From assembly GCA_000002435.2 (NCBI GenBank), contig CM018792.1: a stretch of 64,000 nt of DNA. One strand, 5' to 3'. Of the stretch, positions 365 to 22,525 are shown piece after piece (position 1 is the stretch's first letter; each line of letters opens with the position of its first letter). The notes under the pieces were generated by a model, which was not told the DNA's origin, searched no databases, and saw nothing but the letters and a program-made list of their open reading frames with translations. This stretch comes from Giardia intestinalis (taxonomy: Eukaryota). Both the position numbers and the translations under genes were made by a program.

Positions 365-378
365 CTTAGGTAGTGAAT
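364..378 (+). promoter_or_regulatory. extended VSP-type poly(A) signal ACTTAGGTAGTGAAT
   Basis: The box starts at the last base of the TGA stop. It fits the ACTYAGRTAGTRAAY pattern that, from memory of the Giardia literature, marks vsp 3' ends. Its ATG at 377 serves as the next unit's start. Confidence 0.7.
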
Positions 379-2364
379 GCTGTACAGTGATAGTGATAGT
401 GCTATGTGGTGTGGGGGTGATAGTGATAGTATGAGACTCCTCTTCATGGGCGGGTGCTACAAGACAGAGAGTCAGCCCGGCAGTGAGATATGCACAGCAG
501 CCAAGGATGGACTGTGCACTACTTGTAATACAGCTAACGGCCTGTTTAAGAACCCGGCTACAGCACCGAAGTCTGGTAGTGAGTGCATCCTCTGCTGGGA
601 CACGGTGGGAGATGGCGCGACGAAGGGAGTCGAGGGCTGTGCCACATGTACAGCACCAGCTAATAATAAGGGGGCTGCCACGTGTACTAAGTGCCAAGAT
701 GGATACTATAAGAACGCTCAGACATGTGTCAAATGTAATGAAGCTTGTCTGACCTGCGATGGAAGTGGCCAGAATGCGTGCACATCGTGCCCAGAGGGGA
801 AGTATTTGAAGACTGATAGTAAGACTTGTGTAGAGGCGTCTGCCTGTGCAAAGGGCACCTATGCCGACGAAGCAACCAGAAAGTGCGAATCCTGTACCGC
901 AGGCTCAGGTGCCGGCGGTACGGCAGGAGTGCAAGAATGCGCTGCGTGTGCATATAATAAGGCCAGCGGAAAACTGGAATGCTCTGAATGTACCGGCGGA
1001 GCCAAGATCCCCAGGGTGTCTTTGGATGGTACCTCGACCTGCGTGGCGAAGGACTACGCCGGGTGTGCCGGACAAGACAACGCTTTGTTTATAGTAGAGG
1101 ACAAGTCCAAATGCCTTTTGTGCGACGACGTTGAAACGGGGACAGATCCGAAGGATCAGGGCGTCGCCGGCTGTAAGGCTTGCACGAAGACCTCGAGTGC
1201 AAAGCCCACTTGCACAGAATGCTTGGAGGGATACAAAAGTACCGGAGTTGGTTCAGTAACATGCACCCCCTGTCACGCCAACTGTGCCACATGCTCAGCT
1301 GAAACTGCTGAGGATAAGTGCCTGACCTGCAAAGCAGGGTTCTTTCTAGTTGATGTTACGGGTGGGAAGAAGTGTGTCCCATGTGATAGCAAAACCGATA
1401 ATGGCATCGATGGGTGTGCCGAGTGTGATAACAGTACTGGATCCCTCAAGTGTACAAAGTGCAAGGTGAACTACAAGCAGAGCGGTACCGGTCCTGTTAC
1501 ATGTACCAAGACTTGTGAAGATGAGACTGCATGCGGGGGTACCTCTGGCGCCTGTGATGCCATCGTAATAGATGATAAGGGCAACACAAAGCACTACTGT
1601 TCATACTGTGGGGATGACAGTAAGGTACCGATTGATGGGAAGTGTGTTGATAGTGGTAGTATAAATGGTAATACTTGTGCTAAAGGTGTATGTACACAGT
1701 GTGCTCAAGGATACTTCTTATACATGGGAGGCTGTTATAAGGTAGCAAGTCCACCTGGTAACCTCATGTGCACTGAAGCAACAACAGCTGGTGTCTGCAC
1801 AGAGGCGGCCAACAATAAGTACTTCGTAGTACCAGGAGCATCCAATCAGAATCAGTCTGTATTGGCATGTGGTAACCCATTAGGCACACTAGTAGGCACT
1901 CAAGGTACTGCTAAGGCATACGTGGGGGTACTCAACTGTTCACAGTGCACAGCCCCAGCAGCTCTGTCTGATGGTGGTATGGCTGCTGCTATATGTACCT
2001 CCTGTGACAGTGATAGGAAGCCCAACAGGGATGGCAGTGGGTGCTTCGCATGTGCCGTTAGTGGATGCTCGCACTGCAACAGGGATGACATGTGCGAGGC
2101 ATGTAATGATGGTAAGAAGGTGAGCCCTGGGAGGAAGTCATGCGTGGATAAGTGTCCCAGCAACTCCACTGACACCGACTCTGTCTGTGTGTGCGACGAT
2201 GGATATAGCCCTGACAGCAGTGGGACCTCCTGTGTGTCTATGAGCACCAACAGGAGCGGGCTCTCCACGGGGGCCATCGCGGGCATCTCCGTCGCTGTCA
2301 TCGCTGTCGTGGGGGTCTCATAGGGTTCCTCTGCTGGTGGTTCCTGTGTAGAGGGAAGGCGTGA
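377..2364 (+). pseudogene. VSP-like unit 1, frame-shifted by a 1-nt deletion in a G-run (intact length would be 662 aa)
   Basis: An ATG at 377 (embedded in the upstream poly(A) box) opens a frame that terminates at TAG 2321-2323 (...AVIAVVGVS*). The near-identical copy at 20523..22511 has gtcgtggggggtctc where this copy has gtcgtgggggtctc at 2307-2320 (G6 against G5). The +1 frame 2323-2364 still encodes GFLCWWFLCRGKA* followed by the poly(A) box. This is either a pseudogene or a homopolymer sequencing error. Confidence 0.65.
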
Positions 2365-2378
2365 CTTAGGTAGTGAAT
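2364..2378 (+). promoter_or_regulatory. extended VSP-type poly(A) signal ACTTAGGTAGTGAAT
   Basis: The box follows the displaced CRGKA-TGA of unit 1 (2362-2364). Confidence 0.65.
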
Positions 2379-2417
2379 GCTCTATAGTGTATGATAATGG
2401 GTGATAGAGGGTGATAG
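2379..2417 (+). repeat. inter-unit spacer of GGTGATAG(A/T)G-type repeats
   Basis: The sequence is gctctatagtgtatgataatgggtgatagagggtgatag. The same spacer type recurs at 6192-6230, 15086-15124 and 18723-18761. Confidence 0.7.
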
Positions 2418-20510: not shown

Positions 20511-20524
20511 CTTAGGTAGTGAAT
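20510..20524 (+). promoter_or_regulatory. extended VSP-type poly(A) signal ACTTAGGTAGTGAAT
   Basis: The box overlaps the last base of the unit 10 TGA stop. Its ATG at 20523 starts unit 11. Confidence 0.65.
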
Positions 20525-22511
20525 GCTGTACAGTGATAGTGATAGTGCTATGTGGTGTGGGGGTGATAGTGGTGGTGTGGGACTTCTCTTCATGGGCGGG
20601 TGCTACAAGACAGAGAGTCAGCCCGGCAGTGAGATATGCACAGCAGCCAAGGATGGACTGTGCACTACTTGTAATACAGCTAACGGCCTGTTTAAGAACC
20701 CGGCTACAGCACCGAAGTCTGGTAGTGAGTGCATCCTCTGCTGGGACACGGTGGGAGATGGCGCGACGAAGGGAGTCGAGGGCTGTGCCACATGTACAGC
20801 ACCAGCTAATAATAAGGGGGCTGCCACGTGTACTAAGTGCCAAGATGGATACTATAAGAACGCTCAGACATGTGTCAAATGTAATGAAGCTTGTCTGACC
20901 TGCGATGGAAGTGGCCAGAATGCGTGCACATCGTGCCCAGAGGGGAAGTATTTGAAGACTGATAGTAAGACTTGTGTAGAGGCGTCTGCCTGTGCAAAGG
21001 GCACCTATGCCGACGAAGCAACCAGAAAGTGCGAATCCTGTACCGCAGGCTCAGGTGCCGGCGGTACGGCAGGAGTGCAAGAATGCGCTGCGTGTGCATA
21101 TAATAAGGCCAGCGGAAAACTGGAATGCTCTGAATGTACCGGCGGAGCCAAGATCCCCAGGGTGTCTTTGGATGGTACCTCGACCTGCGTGGCGAAGGAC
21201 TACGCCGGGTGTGCCGGACAAGACAACGCTTTGTTTATAGTAGAGGACAAGTCCAAATGCCTTTTGTGCGACGACGTTGAAACGGGGACAGATCCGAAGG
21301 ATCAGGGCGTCGCCGGCTGTAAGGCTTGCACGAAGACCTCGAGTGCAAAGCCCACTTGCACAGAATGCTTGGAGGGATACAAAAGTACCGGAGTTGGTTC
21401 AGTAACATGCACCCCCTGTCACGCCAACTGTGCCACATGCTCAGCTGAAACTGCTGAGGATAAGTGCCTGACCTGCAAAGCAGGGTTCTTTCTAGTTGAT
21501 GTTACGGGTGGGAAGAAGTGTGTCCCATGTGATAGCAAAACCGATAATGGCATCGATGGGTGTGCCGAGTGTGATAACAGTACTGGATCCCTCAAGTGTA
21601 CAAAGTGCAAGGTGAACTACAAGCAGAGCGGTACCGGTCCTGTTACATGTACCAAGACTTGTGAAGATGAGACTGCATGCGGGGGTACCTCTGGCGCCTG
21701 TGATGCCATCGTAATAGATGATAAGGGCAACACAAAGCACTACTGTTCATACTGTGGGGATGACAGTAAGGTACCGATTGATGGGAAGTGTGTTGATAGT
21801 GGTAGTATAAATGGTAATACTTGTGCTAAAGGTGTATGTACACAGTGTGCTCAAGGATACTTCTTATACATGGGAGGCTGTTATAAGGTAGCAAGTCCAC
21901 CTGGTAACCTCATGTGCACTGAAGCAACAACAGCTGGTGTCTGCACAGAGGCGGCCAACAATAAGTACTTCGTAGTACCAGGAGCATCCAATCAGAATCA
22001 GTCTGTATTGGCATGTGGTAACCCATTAGGCACACTAGTAGGCACTCAAGGTACTGCTAAGGCATACGTGGGGGTACTCAACTGTTCACAGTGCACAGCC
22101 CCAGCAGCTCTGTCTGATGGTGGTATGGCTGCTGCTATATGTACCTCCTGTGACAGTGATAGGAAGCCCAACAGGGATGGCAGTGGGTGCTTCGCATGTG
22201 CCGTTAGTGGATGCTCGCACTGCAACAGGGATGACATGTGCGAGGCATGTAATGATGGTAAGAAGGTGAGCCCTGGGAGGAAGTCATGCGTGGATAAGTG
22301 TCCCAGCAACTCCACTGACACCGACTCTGTCTGTGTGTGCGACGATGGATATAGCCCTGACAGCAGTGGGACCTCCTGTGTGTCTATGAGCACCAACAGG
22401 AGCGGGCTCTCCACGGGGGCCATCGCGGGCATCTCCGTCGCTGTCATCGCTGTCGTGGGGGGTCTCATAGGGTTCCTCTGCTGGTGGTTCCTGTGTAGAG
22501 GGAAGGCGTGA
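20523..22511 (+). CDS. VSP-like cysteine-rich surface protein unit 11 (662 aa; ATG inside the preceding poly(A) box)
   Basis: ATG 20523 lies within the upstream AGTGAATGCT box and the frame runs to TGA 22509-22511. The translation reads MLYSDSDSAMWCGGDSGGVGLLFMGGCYKTESQPGSEICTAAKDGLCTTC...[38 protein letters not shown]. It is an intact twin of unit 1 at an offset of 20146 bp and is the last unit of the array. Confidence 0.8.
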   Translation: MLYSDSDSAMWCGGDSGGVGLLFMGGCYKTESQPGSEICTAAKDGLCTTCNTANGLFKNPATAPKSGSECILCWDTVGDGATKGVEGCATCTAPANNKGAATCTKCQDGYYKNAQTCVKCNEACLTCDGSGQNACTSCPEGKYLKTDSKTCVEASACAKGTYADEATRKCESCTAGSGAGGTAGVQECAACAYNKASGKLECSECTGGAKIPRVSLDGTSTCVAKDYAGCAGQDNALFIVEDKSKCLLCDDVETGTDPKDQGVAGCKACTKTSSAKPTCTECLEGYKSTGVGSVTCTPCHANCATCSAETAEDKCLTCKAGFFLVDVTGGKKCVPCDSKTDNGIDGCAECDNSTGSLKCTKCKVNYKQSGTGPVTCTKTCEDETACGGTSGACDAIVIDDKGNTKHYCSYCGDDSKVPIDGKCVDSGSINGNTCAKGVCTQCAQGYFLYMGGCYKVASPPGNLMCTEATTAGVCTEAANNKYFVVPGASNQNQSVLACGNPLGTLVGTQGTAKAYVGVLNCSQCTAPAALSDGGMAAAICTSCDSDRKPNRDGSGCFACAVSGCSHCNRDDMCEACNDGKKVSPGRKSCVDKCPSNSTDTDSVCVCDDGYSPDSSGTSCVSMSTNRSGLSTGAIAGISVAVIAVVGGLIGFLCWWFLCRGKA

Positions 22512-22525
22512 CTTAGGTAGTGAAC
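22511..22525 (+). promoter_or_regulatory. extended VSP-type poly(A) signal, variant ACTTAGGTAGTGAAC
   Basis: The box overlaps the last base of the unit 11 TGA stop. No spacer repeat follows it, so this is the end of the array. Confidence 0.6.

Follow-up and report, generated by a model that had tools for sequence, protein, structure and literature searches.

The window analysed is a 64,000-nucleotide stretch of Giardia intestinalis (G. lamblia) DNA (GenBank assembly GCA_000002435.2, contig CM018792.1), of which positions 1-22525 are occupied by a head-to-tail array of sequences for variant-specific surface proteins (VSPs). All lie on the + strand: eleven units, numbered 1-11, preceded by the tail of a twelfth, unit 0. 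Taken in aggregate, the data make it highly probable that this is a silent array of truncated cassettes. Both the locus and the silent-cassette idea are already known and have been in print since 2010, so the finding itself brings no new biology. Several observations are nevertheless added as leads, not yet as discoveries: reading frames that remain open with a ratio of nonsynonymous to synonymous divergence (dN/dS) of ~0.3; homogenised flanks; one exchange visible at the DNA level; a seam in the GC content of third codon positions (GC3); and the start of unit 6.

The array and its published counterpart

The best protein matches of the units are VSPs of Giardia lamblia ATCC 50803 (WB). The translations carry GGCY motifs, unit 6 matches the Giardia VSP family (Pfam PF03302) with E = 5e-40, and a protein search with unit 2 returned 206 VSP matches (best E = 1e-284). 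Counted from its first ATG, unit 2 is 99% identical to XP_001705784.1 (P0001), and units 5, 6 and 11 have proteins of 100% identity in XP_001707661 (P0090), XP_001707663 (P0010) and XP_001707667 (P0009), respectively. The arrangement is that of a linear array, in which at least two VSP copies stand head to tail with short intergenic gaps (mean about 60 bp); here, the gaps between a stop codon and the next frame opening, as read, are 12-94 nt across the array.

Open reading frame (ORF) lengths and gene numbers match those of Adam et al. (2010; BMC Genomics 11:424, PMC2996952), which identifies units 4-11 as vsp58-65 of their longest "linear array". The entries for vsp58-65 in Additional file 1 of that study give 340, 887, 650, 183, 389, 518, 183 and 662 aa, place the genes on chromosome 4, flag them LA and "Inr: No", where Inr is the initiator, and include the numbers 137611, 40571, 114277, 26590 and 115085. 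In the passages of the same study on this array, vsp61 and vsp64 are a pair of 94% identity with long stretches in common, which are here units 7 and 10 (94.1%), and the single Clade II member is unit 5. On this sequence correspondence, the region is identified as the 3′ part of the WB chromosome 4 pseudo-VSP linear array. Compared with the vsp56-65 array of the 2007 assembly, units 4-11 are the same locus, whereas the newer assembly of the window extends upstream by units 0-2, differs at unit 3 (vsp57 is listed at 641 aa) and has a 1-nt contraction in unit 9. A vsp57 of 641 aa fits neither unit 3 nor unit 1 or 11. With a 327-nt tract identical in units 1 and 3, the older assembly may contain a chimeric contig at vsp57.

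The window opens inside unit 0, whose C-terminal part (1-364) contains NRSG, the transmembrane (TM) helix, CRGKA and TGA, and is identical over positions 1-276 to unit 6 at 12872-13147. The presence of this tail implies that the array runs on upstream and that its head gene is not visible; exact-protein look-ups with units 1 and 11, aimed at the head, found no contig. The extended VSP poly(A) box CTTAGGTAGTGA follows at 365-376. Unit 1 (377-2364) starts MLYSDSDSAMWCGGDSDSMRLLFMGGCYK from an ATG in the spacer, has no signal peptide, and has its CRGKA stop at 2362-2364. A short spacer (2365-2417) made of the poly(A) box, GCTCTATAGTGTATGATAAT and then GGGTGATAG-type repeats, with stops in all three frames, leads into unit 2 (2418-4277), which opens WSEICTAASDG. 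After a spacer with five GTGATAR repeats and stops in every frame (4278-4353), unit 3 (4354-6177) opens WSDICTAASNG, with 607 codons open and 559 aa from its first ATG. Unit 4 (6231-8102; vsp58, GL50803_137611) has 340 aa from its first ATG, and the Clade II unit 5 (8154-11207; vsp59, GL50803_40571) has 887 aa within an open frame of 1017 codons.

The spacer before unit 6 (11208-11282) consists of four GGGTGATAGA repeats and then GTGTGATGATAGT; unit 6 itself (11283-13235; vsp60, GL50803_114277) starts MIVLCGVLCSVGDSDSVGLLFMGGCYK and has 650 aa. Unit 7 (13320-15071; vsp61) and unit 10 (18762-20510; vsp64), the 94%-identical pair, each have 183 aa from their first ATGs, and unit 8 (15125-16870; vsp62, GL50803_26590) has 389 aa. 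Unit 9 (16934-18708; vsp63) meets a stop at 18320-18322, and the rest, through CRGKA, continues in another frame to 18708. The last member, unit 11 (20523-22511; vsp65, GL50803_115085), has 662 aa.

The junctions are built alike. Twelve copies of TTAGGTAGTGAA, at 366, 2366, 4282, 6179, 8104, 11209, 13237, 15073, 16872, 18710, 20512 and 22513, each follow one of twelve C-terminal modules, so that every module presents the TM helix, CRGKA, stop codon and extended poly(A) signal, the last reported to be specific to VSPs and pseudo-VSPs (bioRxiv 10.1101/2022.03.07.483299). Unit 2 ends TAG, followed by GTA and then the box. The initial annotation had described eleven perfect C-terminal modules; nine units do reach CRGKA in frame as read, but units 1 and 9 lose the frame, and among the nine, unit 5 has NRGG for NRSG. 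Beyond the box come ~12 nt and then 2-5 degenerate GTGATAR-containing repeats of ~10 nt, an architecture common to all eleven junctions. The spacers at 2365-2417, 6178-6230, 15072-15124 and 18709-18761 are identical. Because the repeats supply TGA and TAG triplets, the eight short spacers contain stops in all three frames, and read-through from the upstream unit is therefore blocked.

Long - strand ORFs of 160-280 aa also cross unit junctions (137-697, 3786-4553, 6195-6794, 7953-8699, 12770-13522, 16501-17154, 20093-20843 and 22046-22888). In reverse complement, the GTGATAG repeats (CTATCAC) are free of stops in all frames, and these ORFs are probably a by-product of composition. Across 1-22600, GC skew is strongly and uniformly positive (0.12-0.18) and GC content is ~52%; after 24 kb, these fall abruptly to ~0 and 43-47%.

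The 3′ flank (22512-22633) contains a poly(A) box with AGTGAAC and no ATG, then unique sequence, beyond which lies a convergent flavodiiron-type housekeeping gene (23137-24381). This flank, made up of the ~120 nt that follow unit 11, is homologous to 12140-12262 of locus L004, the 3′ flank of a solitary VSP gene at a non-syntenic locus of another isolate. Its opening, GCTCTGTTGGTGGTTAGTG, resembles the start of the array spacers, so the spacer repeat may have originated in an ancestral 3′ flank, in the GGTGATGG that belongs to the CGDGYF codons, or in both. Farther out, a short-read (Logan) Giardia assembly, L001, stops at ~24270, beside the array and 671 nt short of the AAA-ATPase gene at 24944, on its upstream side. 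The only contigs on which this neighbouring gene was located are short-read ones that end beside the array, and short-read assemblies evidently cannot cross the region.

The missing 5′ ends

At the opposite end, no unit has the start of a complete gene. The initial annotation had noted frames that open at a TGG directly after a spacer stop, and stop-to-stop translation of the + strand reproduces this for eight units (2418, 4354, 6231, 8154, 13320, 15125, 16934 and 18762). In these, 51-84 nt separate the preceding stop codon from the TGG, and the first in-frame ATGs lie, as described there, far downstream (2994, 4498, 7080, 8544, 14520, 15701, 17153 and 19959). The late first ATGs are attributable to chance in a Met-poor protein (4-9 Met per unit), and at least four of the first Mets are internal residues that also occur in complete VSPs: LFMKE (2994, 15701) and YFMYMGGCY (14520, 19959). 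Units 1, 6 and 11 do begin at ATGs within spacer sequence; those at 377 and 20523 overlap the AGTGAATG of the poly(A) box, and that at 11283 sits in the repeat spacer.

The identity of the truncation point required correction. An N-terminal module LLFMGGCYKTESQPG (LLFMGGCYK) had been assigned to every unit, but only units 1, 6 and 11 have it, and the other eight start WS(E/D/V)ICT. Nor do the units start within a copy of an internal module, as had been proposed; their starts match instead the first GGCY module, CGDGYFLFMGGCYKTTDGPGSEICTAAS, which complete VSPs carry at residues ~80-105. The complete VSPs of WB, P0005 for example, begin MFQLIPLFVASALMAAC...KCGDGYFLFMGGCYKTTDGPGSEICTAASNG. Relative to these, units 1, 6 and 11 start at the first GGCY module (~residue 90) and the other eight ~15 codons later, at SEICTAA. 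By this alignment, the missing part corresponds to the signal peptide and the first Cys-rich subdomain, i.e. the first ~90-105 residues of a complete VSP. Consistent with this assignment, tblastn with the N-termini of eight complete VSPs found no copy of the N-terminal domain in the window: no residue of their first 48 aa was confidently matched, and residues ~49-95 showed weak, module-level similarity.

The tryptophan of WSEICTAA was considered as a recombination scar and rejected as direct evidence of one. Two intact VSPs, P0004 and P0046, have it too (KTS[QL]WSE), and the codons differ: the orthologue in isolate DH codes WSEI as TGG TCT GAG ATC vs TGG AGT GAG ATA in the array. Splicing to an upstream exon was rejected as well, as no Giardia-type intron 3′ motif of the [CT..]ACACACAG type is present in the window.

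The units also lack the upstream elements of a Giardia gene. In a strand-independent scan of AT content, 14-mers of at least 86% AT are absent from the 22.6 kb of array but reach a density of 2.85 per kb over the remainder of the window. The same 22.6 kb contains no PyAATGTT initiator (Inr). The initial annotation had placed an AT-rich initiator at every other gene of the window; such an element (a 12-mer of at least 83% AT within 50 nt upstream) is found at 11 of 15, and the remaining four do not have one. The units thus possess neither the initiator or AT-rich upstream element nor the signal peptide and first Cys-rich subdomain of a complete, expressible VSP gene. They are instead like the downstream members of linear arrays, which are without Inr, proper start codon and signal peptide.

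One unit departs from this pattern in part. The absence of a hydrophobic N-terminus, claimed for all units, is confirmed by hydropathy for ten of the eleven, which have no signal peptide. Unit 6 differs in starting with MIVLCGVLCSVG, followed by DSDS (11283-11318), with a small-residue S-V-G end and a 9-residue Kyte-Doolittle mean of 3.0 vs 2.1-2.7 for real VSP signal peptides. This segment is encoded by the GT-rich spacer repeat in its Val/Ile frame. On its sequence, unit 6 could be a case of a newly arisen start codon and predicted signal peptide, born from the GT-rich spacer. Its protein, XP_001707663.1, exists only in the old annotation.

The annotation history of these genes is in line with truncation. 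The sections of Adam et al. (2010; PMC2996952) on linear arrays describe downstream members without Inr and with variably placed first ATGs. Xu et al. (2020; Sci Data 7:38, PMC7000408), in the part concerned with VSP annotation, re-annotated VSPs without a proper signal peptide as pseudo-VSPs, and a 2022 preprint agrees. According to the curation account of Xu et al. (2020), SignalP 5 was used in curating the WB protein set now in force. The intact VSPs have up-to-date accessions, whereas units 6 and 11 (P0010, P0009) persist only as old XP_ records absent from that set. In the portions of both studies that treat these genes, ORFs are counted from the first ATG, and the spacer repeat, the exact truncation point, dN/dS and the GC3 break are not described.

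Divergence, homogenisation and exchange

Pairwise nucleotide identity between units is 64-75%, except for units 1/11 (99.7%) and 7/10 (94.1%). In all diverged pairs, dN/dS is 0.26-0.45, with dS about 0.7-1.3. No nonsense codon is present in 21,531 nt of unit frames, in which 4.16% of random substitutions would make a stop; this bounds neutral change since any release from constraint at ~72 substitutions, or roughly 0.3% per site. The unit bodies have diverged as protein-coding sequence, and their frames are still open. A search for orthologues from which dN/dS could be measured in situ gave no match above 74% identity to any unit outside WB.

This divergence is unevenly distributed. Averaged over unit pairs, nucleotide identity falls from 85-98% across the spacer and initial codons to 52-65% in those core windows that differ most, and is 89-90% again at the 3′ end. 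The proportion of synonymous differences (pS) correspondingly is 0.12 for codons 1-20, 0.55-0.87 for the core and 0.27 for the 3′ end. Over codons 1-20 the nonsynonymous proportion (pN), 0.13, about equals pS, which indicates homogenisation and not protein constraint. The array thus consists of truncated copies that lack promoters and in which conserved flanks enclose a variable core, as in a cassette archive. Exact tracts of 548, 482, 438, 360, 354, 338 and 327 nt are shared between otherwise diverged units. Positions 233-2377 (unit 1) and 20379-22524 (unit 11) have only six differences; this duplication begins ~130 nt ahead of the stop that precedes the unit and takes in the whole poly(A) box. 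Unequal crossing-over and gene conversion that start within the conserved flanks would be expected to leave such a pattern.

Two lesions break the frame, and they are the only ones in the eleven units. Unit 1 loses frame at 2310 (G5 vs G6 in unit 11), its frame ending at 2323, and unit 9 does so at ~18319 (C4 vs C5 in unit 5). Both are 1-nt homopolymer contractions in tracts otherwise identical to another unit, and with one base restored both units read through to CRGKA. In the 2007 Sanger assembly, vsp63 has 518 aa, equal to the repaired unit 9 frame (591 aa) minus 73; the intact length there suggests that the unit 9 lesion may be a long-read error or a recent change. More generally, both contractions may be PacBio consensus errors or very recent mutations.

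Segments of the units recur in intact genes elsewhere, as the comparison proposed in the initial annotation brought out. Four intact, signal-peptide-bearing WB VSPs on other chromosomes, each on a large contig (P0004, P0005, P0006 and P0024), share stretches of 60-100 aa with one unit at 90-100% identity, vs 27-57% for the median unit. In P0005, residues 151-210 resemble unit 3 and residues 481-510 unit 11; in P0006, residues 451-510 resemble unit 3 and residues 151-180 unit 6; residues 391-450 of P0024 resemble unit 8, and residues 601-708 of P0004 resemble unit 2. Exact shared tracts reach 83 aa between unit 3 and P0006, 43 aa between unit 3 and P0005, and 67 aa between unit 8 and P0024.

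At the DNA level, the comparison covers the DH-isolate orthologue of P0004/vsp72 (locus L002). Over 270 nt (90 codons), unit 2 at 3873-4142 and L002 at 8049-8318 share 94-98% nucleotide identity and 89-97% identical codons, vs 50-65% nucleotide identity outside the tract. Within it, unit 2 has a GC3 of 0.76 vs 0.46 in the remainder of the unit, and the intact gene 0.74 vs 0.72 in the rest of the gene. Blastn between other-isolate loci and the array gave a single tract of at least 93% identity; the informative signal of exchange is the codon-wise comparison.

The point at which array units start also appears in complete-type genes. Two of three, namely the head gene of L003 in DH (9971-12109) and the solitary gene of L004 (10001-12139), have a GC3 of 0.83-0.87 up to about codon 80 but of 0.49-0.50 beyond the first FLFMGGCY motif (Fisher p about 1e-8 to 1e-10). 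The L002 gene is GC3-rich throughout. Array bodies have a GC3 of 0.50, the same as the downstream parts of the L003 and L004 genes, so the unit start is also a compositional seam in intact-type genes. L003 is a two-member array comprising: a head gene with the N-terminal domain; the same spacer of poly(A) box and GTGATAG repeats; and a member starting ...GDSDSVGLLFMGGCYKTESQPG. As a separate observation, L003 and L004 read ACCACAGCC TTT CTA CTG ATA CCC at ~9960-10000 vs ATG TTT CAA CTG ATA CCC (MFQLIPLF) in WB; they have no ATG at the signal peptide, where the start is lost or lies elsewhere, and the preceding CACCACAG is faintly like the Giardia 3′ splice motif.

A proposed silent archive and its alternatives

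The reading of the units as promoter-less, start-less silent cassettes, put forward in the initial annotation, is supported by the absence of an AT-rich element or Inr, of the N-terminal domain and of an intron motif, and by the three-frame spacer stops. It also fits the homogenised flanks, the variable core and the segments common to intact VSPs. The repeat unit takes in the VSP sequence from its first GGCY module (residue ~90-105) onwards, with the CRGKA stop and the poly(A) box, and then a short GT-rich repeat spacer. The array may have grown by tandem duplication with one breakpoint inside a gene, and afterwards through recurrent rounds of unequal crossing-over and gene conversion that began in the conserved flanks. 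The units would not be expressed on their own; they would form an archive that swaps body segments, in either direction, with those few genes of its clade that are competent for expression, and this exchange would keep the frames open. Whether such a silent array would act as a useful donor or mainly as a sink is, from the sequence comparisons, about evenly balanced.

Several points weigh against the silent-archive reading. The silence of the units is drawn from their sequence and from RNA-seq of G. muris, and the head of the array lies outside the window. Adam et al. (2010) treat the switching of VSPs in Giardia as an epigenetic process and not as one of recombination. A dN/dS of 0.3 could predate the entry of these sequences into the array. 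The GC3 of the unit 2 tract fits the intact gene and not unit 2, so that this conversion was probably from the intact gene into the array. Finally, unit 6, with its ATG and signal-peptide-like start, is a partial exception.

A more ambitious proposal is that the archive is kept open by selection: Clade I VSPs would be modular, and Giardia, besides switching epigenetically, would vary the VSPs that it expresses through segmental conversion from silent arrays. Here, a 5′ head rich in GC3, comprising the promoter, the signal peptide and about 80 codons from the start, would be joined to array-type bodies at the FLFMGGCYK...SEICTAA junction. This remains tentative, and we hold it to be possible but doubtful.

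Alternatively, the units may be discarded remnants or a sink, open through youth or through overwriting from intact VSPs, with the array purely a recipient. This view, which overlaps the silent-archive reading, is somewhat unlikely. In the passage where Adam et al. (2010; PMC2996952) advance unexpressed recombination cassettes as a hypothesis, they offer "remains of discarded vsp genes" as the other possibility. The intact-gene GC3 of the unit 2 tract 3873-4142 fits such overwriting, whereas the bulk of the units, with GC3 0.50 vs 0.72 in the one wholly GC3-rich intact gene examined, indicates that most of the array is not a recent copy from that kind of gene; the array-like GC3 bodies behind a GC3-rich 5′ module in two complete-type genes fit flow from array to head at least as well. 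The frameshifts in two units would suit decay, but both are single homopolymer contractions in otherwise identical tracts, and one is absent from the Sanger assembly. Similarly, pN about equal to pS in the first 20 codons shows no protein-level constraint at the junction, yet there are zero nonsense codons in 21.5 kb.

Expression of some units is improbable, whether from the ATG of unit 6, from those that units 1 and 11 have in spacer sequence, from internal ATGs or from a non-canonical start, and the undescribed non-canonical start that the initial annotation had allowed as an alternative found no support. The unit 6 segment MIVLCGVLCSVG exceeds real VSP signal peptides in hydropathy, but no AT-rich element or Inr lies upstream of any candidate start. 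An ATG in AGTGAATG is kept in every spacer; in the eight short ones it mostly meets a stop within 5 codons, and the protein from units 1 and 11 would be without a signal peptide. The dN/dS of 0.3 is compatible with translation, and the ORFs were called as genes in the old annotation; units 6 and 11 are, however, missing from the current WB set, and G. muris pseudo-VSPs are essentially untranscribed (PMC7641422).

Still less probable is maintenance of the array as a source of RNA, e.g. antisense or double-stranded RNA over conserved VSP 3′ ends that would feed a proposed control of the RNA-interference type. VSP antisense is abundant, with sense exceeding antisense reads for only 12-20% of VSPs in strand-specific RNA-seq (bioRxiv 10.1101/2022.03.07.483299), and the array gathers twelve near-identical 3′ modules in one region, with long minus-strand ORFs spanning the junctions. 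An RNA role would not need open frames or a dN/dS of 0.3, though, and neither strand of the array has a promoter-like AT-rich element.

The weakest alternative, that the missing 5′ ends are an assembly artefact of repeat collapse or omitted exons, is scarcely credible: the region is highly repetitive, short-read assemblies break beside it, the two 1-nt homopolymer differences look like long-read errors and the 641-aa vsp57 of the old assembly mismatches unit 3, but Sanger (2007/2010) and PacBio (2020) assemblies agree independently on unit structure and ORF lengths, isolate DH has the same spacer and truncated start, one architecture recurs at eleven junctions, and the omitted 5′ exons that the initial annotation had named as a counter-case leave no intron 3′ motif in the window.

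The choice between reservoir and debris bears on the size of the Giardia antigenic repertoire and on VSP-based vaccine ideas. In the VSP counts of Xu et al. (2020; PMC7000408), the WB genome has 208 pseudo-VSPs vs 133 intact VSPs. Literature under the GL50803 gene numbers of the units yielded no usable expression data.

The closest counterparts of the WB array are the pseudo-VSP arrays of Giardia muris, which are likewise head-to-tail copies without signal peptides (Xu et al. 2020, Microb Genom 6:mgen000402, PMC7641422). The G. muris arrays are essentially untranscribed and were proposed to be a reservoir, and phylogeny points to recombination or segmental gene conversion with intact VSPs (PMC7641422). 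They differ from the WB array in that nearly all are telomere-adjacent, in a species with few intact VSPs, whereas the 3′ end of the WB array adjoins a housekeeping gene. In addition, the G. muris authors speak of relaxed constraint, in contrast to the dN/dS of ~0.3 and almost complete absence of disabling mutations here.

A wider comparison, drawn in part from the discussion in PMC7641422, is with the silent donor archives of other pathogens. In the WB array, unlike in those archives, exchange is visible on an evolutionary scale only, and one case was seemingly into the array. We know of no dedicated expression site in Giardia and of no report of switch-associated gene conversion. In architecture, the array resembles the VSG arrays of Trypanosoma brucei, Pneumocystis MSG, Borrelia vls and Anaplasma msp2: promoterless, 5′-truncated tandem copies with conserved blocks around a variable core. 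It also has in common with these four archives that the functional genes are mosaic.

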